Below, one piece after another: positions 55 to 23,534 of a stretch of 64,000 nucleotides of DNA (position 1 is the stretch's first letter; each line of letters begins with the position of its first letter). The stretch spans positions 1-64,000 of the forward strand of contig JANQHR010000049.1 of NCBI GenBank assembly GCA_028282585.1, read 5' to 3'. A model generated the notes under the pieces. The model was not told where the DNA came from, made no database searches, and saw nothing but the letters and a program-made list of their open reading frames with translations. The position numbers and the translations under genes are program-made. The DNA is from Bacteroidales bacterium. Lineage in GTDB: Bacteria > Bacteroidota > Bacteroidia > Bacteroidales > UBA12077.

Positions 55-1758
55 TTACATAGTATATTTTCTTTTTCTTAGATATGCTACTAAAAAGGCA
101 AAAACAATTATAAATAGTACTGGGAAAACAGTATTAATAACTTGCCAACGAGTTCTTTCGTTCTGGATTTTTGTTTTATCAAGTAACCGCAGTTTAAATT
201 CACGTGAACGCATATCTAGAATTCCTCTTTCATCCACTAAATAATGAACTGCGTTCATTACAAATTCTTTGTTTCCATAAGTTTGTTTTGTATATCGATC
301 ATAACCCAGAGGTGTTATAAATATCCCATCAGCTCTTGGTCGAATATCATTTCTAATAATATCTGCGTCAGATACAACAATCATCTTAGTTGATTCACTA
401 GTTTCCTTAAACTTAAATTGAAATCCTTTTATATATTTATCGATCAATCTATTTTTGAATACCGATTCAAAATTTCCCTCCAAAATCACCGCAATTGGAT
501 TATTTGGCATTACAAATGTAGCCTGATCGGGTTGTTTACTCACTTCTCTTAAACTCACTAATAACGGAATATTAAGTACTTTTGAACTATAAGAAGAAGC
601 AAGAATAACTGTCTTAATAACTGCTTCATTATTTCCAACTATATCTAAAACGCTGGGGAATTCTGACTTAATCATATTTAAATTCTTTGTTATCGGATTA
701 TTATCCAAACCATTTAACAAAGGAAAATATAACCAAGGAGCTGGTGCAAATTTAGGTTGAGTACCACTAACCGATGTATTTACAGGGATAACAGCACATT
801 GGATATCCTGAATAATATTTGGATTTACGCGAACTCCATACTTAAATAACTGATCATTTAAATTAATCTCATTCATTAAAGCAAATGTTGAGCCTCCTGT
901 TGACAAGCTATCCATACTAACCTGAATGGATTCTATAAACCAAAGTACTTTACCTCCTTTCATAATATACTGGTCAACAATAAATTTACTTTTTTCAGTA
1001 TATTCTTTTGTTGGCCCTGCAATTATTATTGCATCATATGGATCAAGAATATTTATATAATCTTTAATTGTCACTCTATCAATATCGTAGTATTCACTTA
1101 ATGAGCGTGTAATATCTCCAGTTTTATACTCGTCTAGTTCTCCCTGTCCTTCTATAAAAGCAATTCTTTTTCTTTGTTTCGCGGTAATTTTTCTAATTGC
1201 ATCAACAAATTCATATTCAAGCGATTGGATCGAATTATTTAAGTTTACTTCTGCAGACAATCCGGGATTATTTACCAAAAAATTAACCGGAACTTCCCTA
1301 TCTTTATAAGTTATGATAGCTCCGGGGAATAAGATCTTTTCAGCAAGACCTCCCTCTTCATCCCTATCTTTAACATTAGTTGGATCTAATCCTCTTTCAT
1401 ATAAATCCTGATACATTGCATTTCTTTCAGCTTCAATATTCGACTCAGATGGATTTTTAAACTGATACTGAATACTGCTCCCTGCAACTACTCTGAATTC
1501 ATCCATTAATTCATGAATTGATTTTTGCATTCGCTGAAAACCAATCGGCATTTCTCCATCTAAATAAACTTCGATATAAACCAAATCATCCAATGAATCC
1601 AAAATCTCATGCGTAGCTTTTGAAAGCGTATATCTTTTATCTGCAGTAAGATCTAAACGAAAATAAACATTTGAAGAAATATAATTGATAATTAAAATAA
1701 TCATCAATGTTATAAAAAGTTGAATTATATTTTGTGTTTTTAAATTCTTTTTCATCAT
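55..1758 (-). CDS. gldG: Gliding motility-associated ABC transporter substrate-binding/auxiliary protein GldG
   Basis: 567 aa; N-terminal TM, RLDLTADKRYTLS motif, GNKEFVMNAVHYL, C-terminal TM; directly downstream of gldF. Confidence 0.93.
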   Translation of the reverse strand: MMKKNLKTQNIIQLFITLMIILIINYISSNVYFRLDLTADKRYTLSKATHEILDSLDDLVYIEVYLDGEMPIGFQRMQKSIHELMDEFRVVAGSSIQYQFKNPSESNIEAERNAMYQDLYERGLDPTNVKDRDEEGGLAEKILFPGAIITYKDREVPVNFLVNNPGLSAEVNLNNSIQSLEYEFVDAIRKITAKQRKRIAFIEGQGELDEYKTGDITRSLSEYYDIDRVTIKDYINILDPYDAIIIAGPTKEYTEKSKFIVDQYIMKGGKVLWFIESIQVSMDSLSTGGSTFALMNEINLNDQLFKYGVRVNPNIIQDIQCAVIPVNTSVSGTQPKFAPAPWLYFPLLNGLDNNPITKNLNMIKSEFPSVLDIVGNNEAVIKTVILASSYSSKVLNIPLLVSLREVSKQPDQATFVMPNNPIAVILEGNFESVFKNRLIDKYIKGFQFKFKETSESTKMIVVSDADIIRNDIRPRADGIFITPLGYDRYTKQTYGNKEFVMNAVHYLVDERGILDMRSREFKLRLLDKTKIQNERTRWQVINTVFPVLFIIVFAFLVAYLRKRKYTM

Positions 1759-20307: not shown

Positions 20308-21636
20308 ATGAAAGATTTAACCAAAGGGAAAGAAGGTTCTCTAATACTTAAATTTGCTTTACCAATGTTGTTTGGAAATGTATTTCAGCAACTTTATAAT
20401 GTAGTTGATAGTATAATTGTTGGTAATTTTATTGGTAAAGAAGCGCTTGCGGCAGTTGGAGCTTCATTTCCTATCATATTTGCTTTTCTTTCTTTAATTA
20501 TAGGTATTGCATCCGGAAGTACCATTGTTATATCTCAGTATTTTGGGGCTAAAGAAATTGAAAAGGTTAAAAGAACTATTGATACTTTATTTATCTTTTT
20601 ATTTTTTGCTTCCATTATAATAAGTATTGTCGGAATAATTTTCAGCGAAGACATTTTTGTATTTTTAAAACTTCCGGAAGAAATTATTCCGCAAGCAAAA
20701 GTATATTTCAATATTTTTATTGGTGGTGTTATTGTTTCGTTTGGTTTTAATGGTACTAGTGCGATATTGCGCGGATTAGGCGATTCAAAAACTCCATTAT
20801 ATTTTTTAATTGTATCAACGTTTGCCAATATAGCATTTGATTTATTATTTGTGCTGGTTTTTAAATGGGGAATAGCAGGTGTAGCAATTGCTTCTGTTTT
20901 AGCCCAGGGAGGTGCTTTTTTAACAGCAATCATCTACTTGAATCGAAAACATGAAATCATTCAATTTTCTTTAACTAAACTCGTTTTTGATAAGATAATC
21001 TTCAAGAAAAGTTTACGAATCGGGCTGCCAACCGGAATACAACAAACTTTTGTTGCTATCGGTATGACTGCCTTAATTGGAATTGTTAACAGATTTGGCA
21101 CCGATGTAATTGCAGCATACTCTGTTGTTATGCGAATTGGGTCATTGGCAACATTACCTGCAATGAATTTTGCTCAGGCATTAGGAACATTTGTTGGTCA
21201 GAATATTGGAGCTCACAAAATGGAAAGAGTGAATACAGGACTTATTGCAACATTAAAAATGTCATCAATCGTATCTTTAGCTGTTTCTGCATTTGTACTT
21301 TTAGGTGCAACTTTCTTAATGAACTTATTTACTAACGATACAGAAGTTATTAGAATTGGCAGGGAATATCTTTTAATTGTAGGAGGATTTTATGTTGTAT
21401 TTTCTGCTATGTTTACCATTTCAGGGGTGATGCGAGGTGCAGGAGACACATTAATTCCAATGTTTTTCTCGTTAATATCGCTTTGGTTTATAAGAATTCC
21501 GGGTGCCTGGATTTTATCTGATCATTTCGGAGAAATTGGAATTTGGTGGTCGATGCCTATAGGATGGCTGGTTGGGCTTATACTTTCATTTGCTTATTAT
21601 TTAACAGGAAATTGGAAAAAGAAAGCCATCATTTAA
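20308..21636 (+). CDS. MATE family efflux transporter
   Basis: QQLYNVVDSIIVG, LRGLGDSKTPL, about 12 TM. Confidence 0.95.
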   Translation: MKDLTKGKEGSLILKFALPMLFGNVFQQLYNVVDSIIVGNFIGKEALAAVGASFPIIFAFLSLIIGIASGSTIVISQYFGAKEIEKVKRTIDTLFIFLFFASIIISIVGIIFSEDIFVFLKLPEEIIPQAKVYFNIFIGGVIVSFGFNGTSAILRGLGDSKTPLYFLIVSTFANIAFDLLFVLVFKWGIAGVAIASVLAQGGAFLTAIIYLNRKHEIIQFSLTKLVFDKIIFKKSLRIGLPTGIQQTFVAIGMTALIGIVNRFGTDVIAAYSVVMRIGSLATLPAMNFAQALGTFVGQNIGAHKMERVNTGLIATLKMSSIVSLAVSAFVLLGATFLMNLFTNDTEVIRIGREYLLIVGGFYVVFSAMFTISGVMRGAGDTLIPMFFSLISLWFIRIPGAWILSDHFGEIGIWWSMPIGWLVGLILSFAYYLTGNWKKKAII

Positions 21637-21694
21637 TTTTGAGTATTACTAATTTATTTTATAGTAATTAAGGATATAATACAGCTTTTATTAT

Positions 21695-21736
21695 AAAACA
21701 GTAAAGGGAACCAATCGAGCTGATTAGTCCCCTTTA
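21695..21736 (-). terminator. Minus-strand intrinsic terminator closing the candidate ncRNA
   Basis: AAAGGGGACUAAUC-agcuc-GAUUGGUUCCCUUU; two G-U pairs form only on the minus strand; followed by ACUGUUUU. Confidence 0.75.
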
Positions 21737-22309
21737 ACAATAGAAAACTAAAAGTTTTCCATGTACCAGATTACTGTTATTATGGTTGGCACAACAATTA
21801 AAGATTAAATCTTTAGTTATTAGCCCTGAACCTGCTAACCATTCCAACTAAGGATTGGTTTTTTGGTTGTTCGTTGGTTAAACTTTTAAGAAAAACTTCA
21901 CGAACGAAGTGCCATAATGTAAGCCTATTGATTTGCTCAGTTCTTAATTGCTTATACATTGGGGTCTCCCTTGCGGAATTCCTTTTATGCATAATGTACT
22001 TAAGTTCTTTGCTTAATCTTTGTAAACCTTCACATGTAATCCGAAGATTATTTAAAGGTTTCAGCAATATTTTCAAAGTCATGAACGATCGCTCGTCTAT
22101 TTTGTAATTATTGCTGCTTACAGCTCAATCTGTTAAAGAACGCTAGGCGCTTTTTTGAGACTGATCGAACCTCTTGGAACAAGTCTTTAAGATTCAAACT
22201 TCGGCTCTTGGGGTAAGCAATTTTAAAAATTGTACGATCAGCTAAAAATACAACTAAGTACCTTTCTCCTCTCCCTACCTTTCCGAGCAACCTTTTATCT
22301 CTCACCTGG
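21695..22309 (-). ncRNA. Candidate large (~600 nt) structured non-coding RNA
   Basis: Own -7 box, strand-specific terminator, two UUCG and one GCAA tetraloop hairpins, long-range helices; ends approximate. Confidence 0.65.
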
Positions 22310-22314
22310 TAGAA

Positions 22315-22322
22315 CAAATATA
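22315..22322 (-). promoter_or_regulatory. -7 box (TATATTTG) driving the candidate large ncRNA
   Basis: Exact TAnnTTTG; no plausible long CDS downstream. Confidence 0.7.
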
Positions 22323-22622
22323 CGAACAGGTAGAATTATACTAAAATTTTTTCGCCTGTTTTAGTTAACTTCTTATCAACCAATGTTTTCAACAATTGTT
22401 AATTACTCTATAACGTTTGTCGTGCTTAGGTTTTAAACCAGTATTAAGTTCAATATTTGAGGTTATTAACAATATAGATATTTATTCAACACGACGATAA
22501 ATTATTAATTTGTAAAATAATTTTATTTAAGTTCTTTACGAAAAAATCTATTCAGATTAATAGTTAAATGTTATTAGAAATACAAATTATTCCTTGACCC
22601 CTTAACTATATAACTTATTTAT

Positions 22623-22630
22623 TACCTTTG
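22623..22630 (+). promoter_or_regulatory. -7 box (TACCTTTG) for yicC-gmk-nadD
   Basis: TAnnTTTG about 32 nt upstream of the ATG. Confidence 0.65.
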
Positions 22631-22661
22631 CCCTATAAATTCAATTATAGGAAATAATAAT

Positions 22662-23534
22662 ATGATAAAATCTATGACCGGCTATGGAAAAGCCGAATGT
22701 GAATTAAGAGATCGAAAAATTATTGTTGAAATAAAATCTTTAAATAGTAAAAATCTGGATCTACATACTAAAATCCCCGGAATTTACCGAGAAAAGGAAC
22801 TTGATATCAGAAATCATATTTCGAAGAAGTTATTACGTGGTAAAGTAGAGTTTGTATTGTATTATGAAGTTTCAGATGAAAATAAGGCGACCACTATAAA
22901 CTCGGGTGTAATTAAAAATTATGTAAATCAATTAAAAGAAATTGCCACAGAATTAAATCTTCAATCGGAACAGTTATTACAAATGGCTATTCGATTACCC
23001 GATACCTTGAATACTGAAAAAGAAGAAATAGATGAAAATGAGTGGAAAATTGTCATTTCTACTATTGAAACTGCTCTTGACCAACTGGATAGTTTTAGAA
23101 CACAAGAGGGTAAATATCTAAAAGATGATATAGAACAAAGAATAAAAGCTATAGAAGAAAGGAAAAATGAGATCACTCCTTTTGAACTTAATAGGACCGA
23201 AAAAATAAAATCCAAACTAAAAGAAGGCTTAAACAAATCCTTTGATGAAAAAGAATACGATAAAAACAGGTTTGAACAAGAATTGATATATTATCTAGAA
23301 AAACTTGACATTACAGAAGAAAAAGTTCGATTAACAAATCATTGCAACTATTTCTTGGAAATGCTAAATGAACCTGAATCAAATGGCAAAAAGCTAGGTT
23401 TTATAAGCCAAGAAATTGGTCGTGAAATAAATACAATCGGATCAAAAGCTAACGATTCAGATATTCAAAAACTTGTTGTTTTAATGAAAGATGAATTGGA
23501 GAAAATTAAAGAGCAAATGCTTAATATTCTTTAA
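22662..23534 (+). CDS. yicC: YicC/YloC family endoribonuclease
   Basis: MIKSMTGYG, EKLDITEEKVRL, GKKLGFISQEIGREINTIGSK. Confidence 0.95.
   Translation: MIKSMTGYGKAECELRDRKIIVEIKSLNSKNLDLHTKIPGIYREKELDIRNHISKKLLRGKVEFVLYYEVSDENKATTINSGVIKNYVNQLKEIATELNLQSEQLLQMAIRLPDTLNTEKEEIDENEWKIVISTIETALDQLDSFRTQEGKYLKDDIEQRIKAIEERKNEITPFELNRTEKIKSKLKEGLNKSFDEKEYDKNRFEQELIYYLEKLDITEEKVRLTNHCNYFLEMLNEPESNGKKLGFISQEIGREINTIGSKANDSDIQKLVVLMKDELEKIKEQMLNIL

Follow-up and report, generated by a model that had tools for sequence, protein, structure and literature searches.

The minus strand of positions 22310-21695 in a 64,000-nt stretch of DNA from a Bacteroidales bacterium (lineage UBA12077; contig JANQHR010000049.1 of assembly GCA_028282585.1; hereafter, the window) almost certainly represents, as judged from comparative sequence analysis, a stand-alone gene for a structured non-coding RNA (ncRNA) of 616 nt, which has its own Bacteroidetes-type promoter and terminator and falls outside the families in Rfam. 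A preliminary description of the window, made by reading the sequence, had proposed here an independently transcribed, large structured ncRNA, other than RNase P, tmRNA or SRP RNA and possibly undescribed. The proposal is upheld by base-pair covariation, a promoter in 26/26 members, a terminator, the lack of a conserved open reading frame (ORF), the lack of any Rfam match and a contig from a metatranscriptomic library that possibly contained DNA. As delimited in an alignment of 11 homologs, the gene (21695-22310) begins at the first base of P1, a closing helix (ACCAGG...), and finishes with the T-run of the terminator. Its neighbors are a MatE-family gene (20308-21636, plus strand), with which it is convergent, and a yicC-like gene (22662-23534, plus strand), from which it diverges; these two genes are separated by 1,025 bp, much more than in related genomes. 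The G+C content from ~21700 to 22400 is 0.34-0.38, as compared to 0.22-0.28 in the adjoining intergenic DNA. The features listed in the preliminary description are all where it placed them, but the element is longer than it supposed, because conservation continues upstream to ~22472 and includes the promoter and the putative operator DNA.

Base-pair covariation, as expected of a stand-alone gene for a structured ncRNA, was found in a within-genus alignment of 11 RNAs (630 columns, source genome included). The consensus obtained with RNAalifold comprises 165 pairs in 30 helices, with 96.5% of the cells occupied by standard pairs. Changes on both sides occur in 45/165 pairs, versus 20.5±3.0 in column shuffles (n = 500; 0/500 reach 45), which ignore sequence relatedness, and 3-9 in controls with the 3′ partners slid by 1-3 columns, which preserve it. 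Likewise, in an alignment of the 3′ domain from 20 members, which is model-fitted and thus biased toward the structure, compensatory changes were present in 33/41 pairs, whereas shuffles yielded 15.9±2.3 and slid controls 12-19. As a single sequence, the minus strand of the 628-nt stretch of the preliminary description has a minimum free energy of -171.2 kcal/mol versus -135.7±6.3 for 20 shuffles (z = -5.6), the corresponding value for the plus strand being z = -4.6 versus shuffles. In the 11-homolog alignment there are 143 G-U cells versus 20 A-C cells, and the alifold energy is -118.1 for the sense versus -102.6 for the antisense alignment; since G-U exceeds A-C and the sense alignment folds better, we assign the RNA to the minus strand.

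Several of the local hairpins previously picked out by eye are backed by covariation among the 11 homologs: UAAUC-UUCG-GAUUA (22050-22037) within AAACCUU/AAGGUUU (22061-22024), which are helices 18 and 19 of the consensus, UUCC-GCAA-GGGA (21978-21967; helix 23) and GAAAAC/GUUUUC (21759-21743; helix 29). Conversely, two long-range helices proposed at the same time, CUGAUCG/CGAUCAG and AUUAUGGCAC/GUGCC..AUAAU, do not hold, with only 66.7% of their cells paired, a value equalled in 104/500 shuffles, and a single double-changed pair. RNAalifold pairs their segments differently, in helix 10 and in helix 14 (columns 192-196 with 408-412), each of which shows compensatory changes; the partner of AUGGC is at columns 192-196, in helix 14, and the AUAAU stretch is part of an invariant loop. 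The hairpin ACUUCG-UUCG-UGAAGU (21910-21895) is indeed present in the sequence, but it is uninformative within the genus because its sequence is invariant there, and RNAalifold selects a competing pairing of ACUUC (columns 413-417) with GAAGU at columns 112-116. By eye, the pairing in this long-range helix is kept through changes in the distant members L097 (CAAAG/CUUUG) and L059 (CGGAG/CUCCG); we regard the local hairpin and the long-range pairing as alternatives.

The RNA would be transcribed from its own promoter and end at its own terminator, the arrangement expected of a stand-alone ncRNA gene, and it converges on or diverges from neighbors that differ between loci. The -7 box noted in the preliminary description, TATATTTG (pattern TAnnTTTG), is present on the minus strand at 22322-22315 and ends 4 nt before the first base of the RNA. 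A TAnnTTT[G/A] sequence is found at the same distance from P1 in 26/26 members, and this pattern corresponds to the Bacteroidetes promoter consensus. Most members also have, 19-21 bp upstream, a -33 region with TTG (TTTG, TTGC or TTGA), represented in the window by AATTTTAGTAT (22338-22348). At the other end, the intrinsic terminator (21695-21736) has a 14-15 bp stem with a GGGRA/UYCCC base, followed by CUGUUUU; a scan recovered the hairpin reported earlier, at 21736-21702 and followed by the T-run, with 15 pairs (5 G-C), and the sequence does show its two G-U pairs. The terminator stem is helix 30 of the consensus, 100% paired and with two compensatory pairs among the 11 homologs, and the base GGGA..UCCC also occurs in those distant members whose ends were read.

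The minus strand of the element contains ORFs of 89 and 69 aa, and three distant copies are located just downstream of, and in the same direction as, enolase genes. These are the observations in favor of the element being protein-coding, or else a cis-regulatory leader or 3′ untranslated region of a neighboring gene, both of which we consider hardly credible. The 89-aa ORF (21813-22082, minus strand), which does not qualify as a gene, contains in-frame stops or frameshifts in 10/10 homologs, and its variable columns are spread evenly over the three codon positions (54/85, 50/84 and 56/84); the synonymous-codon conservation that the preliminary description had considered as the opposite outcome was thus not seen. 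The longest ORF starting with ATG differs in place and strand between species, so that no reading frame is conserved, in keeping with a stand-alone ncRNA gene. A riboswitch or leader role was rejected, since in the window the RNA faces the 3′ end of MatE, a convergent gene, and in other members its terminator precedes any downstream gene. Furthermore, the neighboring genes vary and the promoter accompanies the RNA in all members.

Comparison with Rfam 15 (4227 models, including OLE, ROOL, GOLLD, HEARO, raiA, 6S, SRP, Bacteroidales-1, Bacteroides-1/-2 and group I/II introns) produced no match to the RNA at any threshold, in agreement with the preliminary description, which considered the RNA possibly undescribed. 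The 64 kb of the window gave no gathering-level match of any kind, be it tRNA, rRNA or riboswitch, and neither did the distant loci L059, L066 and L073; when 12 diverse members were searched at E up to 1, no match fell on the RNA; at E up to 10, region 21500-22800 yielded nine chance-level matches to unrelated families, of at most 23 bits. The earlier conclusion that this is neither RNase P RNA nor tmRNA also stands, because the source genome encodes both on other contigs (RF00010 at G000:C12:2336-2687, 196.3 bits; RF00023 at G000:C124:17912-18311, 159.8 bits), with no match to either at the locus, and a divergent form of these RNAs was therefore rejected. Literature searches, motif strings included, found no relevant description, the supplementary tables of published screens lying outside the comparison. 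The RNA could still belong to a strongly diverged known family (RNase P, tmRNA, 6S, SRP, OLE, ROOL, GOLLD, HEARO/omega RNA, raiA or group II intron) or to a motif published outside Rfam, inasmuch as lists of candidate structured RNAs outside Rfam do exist (for example, Genome Biol 2021;22:100). Nevertheless, the results with the window and with diverse members at gathering and permissive thresholds, the bona fide RNase P RNA and tmRNA elsewhere in the genome, and the literature searches make this very improbable.

A near-identical sequence has been assembled from an RNA library. Among the words sampled, 40% occur in one run recorded as metatranscriptomic, and its single matching contig, of 479 nt (word depth 50, four mismatches and one indel), covers positions 21823-22300, wholly inside the RNA, and carries no information on strand or ends. 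No contig of this run fell on the flanking genes, a lack of cover to which we attach no meaning, and its label (coral metagenome) is not taken here as indicative of habitat.

The organization of the RNA was compared in 26 sequences, 12 from the genus and 14 from outside it. The RNA starts with A[C/U]C[A/G][G/A][G/A][U/C], 4 nt past the -7 box, and its P1 partner near the 3′ end is [A/G][U/C][C/U][U/C][G/U][G/A]. Pairing in P1 is maintained at positions 2-6 in 26/26 members, through 17 combinations of strands, and at position 7 in 23/26, with exchanges of C-G to U-A, G-C to A-U, and G-U to A-U or G-C. The P1 strands are followed and preceded, respectively, by the loop strand J1/2, which is GAG[A/C]GAUAAAA, plus or minus one A, in 25/26 members and AAGAGAUAAAA in the other, and by the opposite strand J2/1, which is AUAAUAAC-N-GUA in 20/26 members and a single-base variant of it in the others. 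The adjoining helix P2 covaries as well (GGU/ACC, GACC/GGUC, GGCC/GGCC, GCUG/CAGU, ACUG/CAGU and GAC/GUC). The family architecture thus consists of P1, which joins the ends of the molecule, a large and nearly invariant asymmetric internal loop of GAGMGAUAAAA versus AUAAUAAC-N-GUA, a short P2, a multi-branched interior, and a 3′ hairpin followed by the terminator. The GUA/GAG triplets beside P1 and the UAA and GAN triplets of the loop presumably recall the loop-E and UAA/GAN three-dimensional modules. The interior varies in size, with P1-to-P1 lengths of 252-554 nt across the 26 members. The 5′ domain (with GAGCCGAAG and an AAAGAC loop) and the 3′ domain can be recognized in most members; the middle one is specific to particular lineages, and shorter or missing in distant members.

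In the window, all on the minus strand, these features are as follows. The 5′ strand of P1, CCAGGU (22304-22309), pairs with 21766-21771, and is followed by the J1/2 strand GAGAGAUAAAA (22293-22303), invariant in the 11-homolog alignment, and by the 5′ strand of P2, GGU (22290-22292), which pairs with 21784-21786. The 5′ domain (22164-22306) contains a GCUC/GAGC helix around a multi-stem unit, and then a hairpin with the conserved AAAGAC loop. The middle, lineage-variable domain (21911-22163) comprises helices 12-23 and holds the UUCG and GCAA hairpins of the preliminary description, whereas the 3′ domain (21764-21910) is made of four stems and then the 3′ strands of P2 and P1. These last two are separated by the nearly invariant J2/1 strand AUAAUAACAGUA (21772-21783), and the 3′ strand of P1, AUCUGG (21766-21771), shows covariation. 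Between P1 and the terminator there is a small hairpin, GAAAAC-UUUUA-GUUUUC (21743-21759), with compensatory changes in 3/6 of its pairs (helix 29).

The extent of the family was assessed with BLASTN and with covariance models of sub-domains, R1 for the 3′ domain and R2 for the 5′ domain, plus R3, rebuilt from 20 diverse sequences. In the window, R1 and R2 score 152 and 151 bits, respectively, and R2 also matches the distant members L066 (68.7 bits) and L059 (44.5 bits). BLASTN against 37 genomes of the genus found the element in 11 of them, counting the source genome, where it is present in one copy, with 72-86% identity over ~715-790 nt; R1 and R2 recovered the same 11 genomes among the 56 from the taxonomic family, and a borderline R1 match in G055 (22.7 bits) was left out. 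An exact-pattern scan for the 3′ motif, with one genome per species, retrieved 23 loci, of which 13 score 29-176 bits with R1; 10 of these are in the genus and three are distant (a Rikenellaceae metagenome-assembled genome, MAG, and two Bacteroidales MAGs). A scan of metagenomes added one in-genus and one distant member. Beyond the family we scanned samples, under strict filters, of the order (151 genomes, about one per family) and of the phylum. In the order sample there were R1 matches in three other families and R3 matches in 10/151 genomes, and reading of the sequences confirmed the RNA in 7/149 genomes outside the genus; in the phylum sample (150 other genomes, four of the same order and the rest outside it) there was no match. 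Among the genomes searched, the family is found in Bacteroidales alone, and is sparse there. Some candidates were discarded: L106 from G143 (20 bits) does not have either end motif, and L084, L087 and L092 (19.2 bits) are devoid of the 5′ motif. In the metagenome contig L090, which is probably chimeric or truncated, the last ~120 nt of a member are fused to an unrelated GC-rich coding sequence.

The preliminary description tied the RNA to yicC and to a housekeeping locus, a view that is contradicted by its occurrence in at least three loci within the genus, by neighbors that differ again outside of it, and by its sporadic distribution (11/37 genomes of the genus), which is not that of a housekeeping RNA. 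The MatE-yicC site is occupied in G000 (the source genome), G004, G008 and G010, as seen from the flanking ORFs, in G046 and G043, as judged by the flanking sequence alone, and in the metagenome member L093. In G005, G002 and G024, the RNA is instead between a gene without a Pfam match and an alkaline-phosphatase gene, and in G001 it is flanked by a carbamoyl-phosphate-synthase-like gene and by one for a PAS histidine kinase. Empty MatE-yicC sites are seen both in three genomes without the RNA (G015, G003 and G051), with the two genes 93-119 bp apart, and in the five carriers that have it elsewhere (G005, G002, G024, G047 and G001), where the gap is ~80-136 bp. Reciprocally, in G000 the genes flanking the other site are 4.4 kb apart, without the RNA. 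Outside the genus, the neighbors include enolase (three loci), UbiD (two), Methyltransf_32 (two), PAS kinase, phosphoglucomutase, PfkB, Fe-ADH, Nudix, SAM synthetase and dihydroorotate dehydrogenase, among others. In sum, operator, promoter, RNA and terminator, of ~0.8-0.9 kb altogether, behave as a self-contained cassette that occupies varying loci in a minority of genomes.

This distribution could also be that of a non-autonomous mobile element, its mobility being served by the RNA itself or by the TTGTTAATAAC sites repeated in the DNA, with a machinery provided in trans. Such an explanation would agree with the several loci within one genus, with the empty MatE-yicC sites in non-carriers and carriers alike, with the sporadic occurrence (11/37 genomes of the genus and 7/149 others in the order) and with the presence of the RNA as a pair of diverged copies, each on its own contig, in three of the seven confirmed genomes outside the genus (G088, G132 and G181). 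We deem it improbable, however, because there is one copy in the source genome, the RNA has its own promoter and terminator, and its elaborate fold is under strong purifying selection. No nuclease, transposase or reverse-transcriptase domain was detected among the 34 flanking ORFs scanned, and neither a transposase nor a reverse transcriptase or integrase lies beside any copy examined. Among viral contigs, none of the 24 loci with the 3′ motif scored above 19 bits with R3, so no member was found there, and a 786-nt sequence from the window did not match any plasmid or phage. Convincing terminal repeats or target duplications were not found either. The sole candidate for terminal repeats, which was rejected, is an AT-rich pair of 22-nt sequences in inverted orientation, 77% complementary, on either side of the cassette (21636-21657 and 22497-22518).

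Upstream of the promoter, the window contains a palindrome, AATTAACAATTGTTGAAAAC (22385-22404, minus strand), which is aligned among the homologs and whose core, AACAATTGTT, starts at -90. This core is found at -90 to -93 in 22/26 members and at -101 in one, a related half-site being found between -84 and -94 in the three that remain. A distal half-site at -162, TTGTTAATAAC (22462-22472, minus strand), repeats part of the proximal site in inverted orientation (inverted repeat I13), and a half-site of this type occurs at -160 to -163 in 14/26 members. Because the motif stays at a fixed distance even across lineages with RNA interiors too divergent to be aligned, we consider it a putative protein-binding operator. 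The possibility that TTGTTAATAAC and TTATTAACA were DnaA boxes was discarded, since they are not clustered in the genome; one interval of the genome has four sites, the classical box pattern does not form a cluster, and the origin may be unassembled. Elsewhere in the source genome, the full palindrome, as AATTAACAATTGTTAATAACTT (G000:C77:23175-23186), is present ~110 bp upstream of a DnaB-like gene (named by eye from its translation), and this gene and the RNA may share a regulator.

Our preferred explanation, which as a whole we hold to be slightly more probable than the contrary, is that the RNA is a trans-acting, compactly folded molecule whose functional site would be the conserved core of P1, internal loop and P2. 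The core would most likely dock a protein partner, in a ribonucleoprotein (RNP) such as that of OLE RNA, and less likely a ligand or a substrate; this role of the core as an RNP or binding platform, taken separately, seems to us plausible, if somewhat short of an even chance. The variable peripheral stems, with their UUCG and GNRA caps, would serve as a scaffold. A DNA-binding protein would set transcription by recognizing the palindrome (-90) and the half-site (-162), and the RNA would be made on a signal rather than constitutively. Because the distribution is sporadic, we argue for an accessory, condition-specific role, and because it is absent from most relatives, the RNA is not a universal housekeeping RNA.

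A number of points weigh against this explanation. The functional interpretation derives from sequence analysis. In the control region, the -33 element is a weak match in the source genome, the palindrome would be a transcription-factor site by virtue of its conservation and fixed position alone, and a regulon for it was rejected, since its 12-mer occurs 10 times genome-wide versus ~5 expected (from our own estimate based on composition), which is not an enrichment. Evidence of expression is one assembled contig from one study, with a library that possibly contained DNA. The homolog sets are phylogenetically related, and of the two covariation controls only the sliding of partners takes this kinship into account. 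Finally, no neighboring gene is consistently present across 17 loci with flanks compared to Pfam, a PAS histidine kinase appearing in two of them, and these neighbors did not reveal a protein partner.

The failure to find a linked protein gene in the scanned flanks is in favor of an RNA that functions without protein, either a ribozyme with its active site in the internal loop or an RNA-only homo-oligomer in the manner of GOLLD, ROOL and OLE. A conserved core with a variable periphery, as observed here, is the pattern of RNase P and of self-splicing introns, and the many stems capped by UUCG or GNRA suggest a compact tertiary fold. Likewise, large ornate RNAs are reported to form RNA-only complexes (bioRxiv 10.1101/2024.12.08.627333). 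On the other hand, we did not identify a cleavage site, a substrate or a palindromic kissing loop, and the RNA is unlike any of the ribozyme models in Rfam, so a protein-free function appears unlikely to us, if the most deserving of attention among the alternatives. Considerably weaker is the case for a base-pairing regulator or sponge, with single-stranded segments pairing to mRNAs or small RNAs (sRNAs), or with repeated motifs titrating an RNA-binding protein. The stand-alone, terminator-ended and apparently regulated transcription resembles that of many sRNAs, and there are conserved unpaired stretches; a length of 616 nt, with 30 helices and covariation throughout, is nonetheless atypical of seed-type sRNAs, and no CsrB-type repeated loop motif is visible, for which we rate this possibility slightly below that of a mobile element. 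Returning to the trans-acting RNA, a bolder formulation, which we advance tentatively and with more doubt than confidence, is that of a new Bacteroidales-confined class of large RNA, traveling as a minimal cassette free of protein genes, whose almost invariant 11/12-nt loop would be a ribozyme active site or an RNP dock, and which would be switched on by a dedicated factor acting at -90.

Among the closest parallels is OLE RNA, which is also of ~600 nt, stand-alone and multi-branched, with islands of invariant nucleotides, is found in anaerobe-rich lineages, and had a function that was long unknown. Partner genes, oapA among them, accompany OLE, whereas the present RNA has no consistently linked gene, is patchy even within the genus and changes locus; moreover, it does not match the OLE model in sequence or structure, and OLE belongs to Bacillota whereas this RNA belongs to Bacteroidales. 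OLE RNA is reported to act as an RNP (PMC9723947, PMC12054373). As with ROOL and GOLLD, the RNA is large, ornate and sporadic, sometimes has more than one copy per genome, and its function is unknown. ROOL and GOLLD are often in prophages beside tRNAs; in contrast, the present RNA lacks an Rfam match, was not found in viral contigs nor matched phages with its window sequence, and neighbors ordinary metabolic genes, with a tRNA near 1/12 diverse loci. That case is L104 (G193), in which a tRNA gene (420-504, minus strand; 60 bits) is ~160 nt downstream on the same strand, the only tRNA neighbor seen among the 12. With RNase P RNA and tmRNA there is an architectural analogy only, in that the ends pair in a closing helix beside a conserved core and the peripheral domains vary by lineage; the source genome has its own RNase P RNA (C12) and tmRNA (C124), and the present RNA is absent from most relatives. 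The raiA motif and other orphan ncRNAs are similar in being stand-alone transcripts of unknown function with their own promoter and terminator and strong covariation, but this RNA is much larger, occurs in a different phylum and does not match any model. It differs from HEARO/omega RNA, retron ncRNA and group II introns in that no nuclease, transposase or reverse transcriptase is adjacent (34 flanking ORFs).

Large, intricately folded and covarying bacterial RNAs are rare, and those discovered (RNase P, tmRNA, group I/II introns, OLE, GOLLD and ROOL) either revealed new biochemistry or remain puzzles. As far as our searches of Rfam 15 and of the literature, supplementary tables aside, show, this would be the first such large orphan RNA in Bacteroidales. 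The 26 sequences, over a twofold range of sizes down to a minimal form of ~310 nt (L073), define a minimal core of ~250 nt and a secondary structure backed by compensatory changes, and the size of the RNA suits cryo-electron microscopy. The sharply defined promoter, with a position-locked putative operator, offers a handle on the regulator and on the inducing condition, and its patchy occurrence at changing loci makes one ask by what means an RNA gene can spread when no protein gene goes with it.

Three further observations concern the genes next to the RNA. The copies in L059, L066 and L096 are directly downstream of enolase, in the same direction, and two of them are then followed by a UbiD-family decarboxylase gene; this linkage is probably due to shared ancestry of those lineages. 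A Methyltransf_32/TRM13-like gene is directly upstream in L105 (G100) and L107 (G135), from unrelated families, which may be due to chance, as these are two of ~15 lineages. Lastly, G001 contains two yicC-like genes, in L114 and in a second place on C76, with 67% and 54% identity to that of the window.

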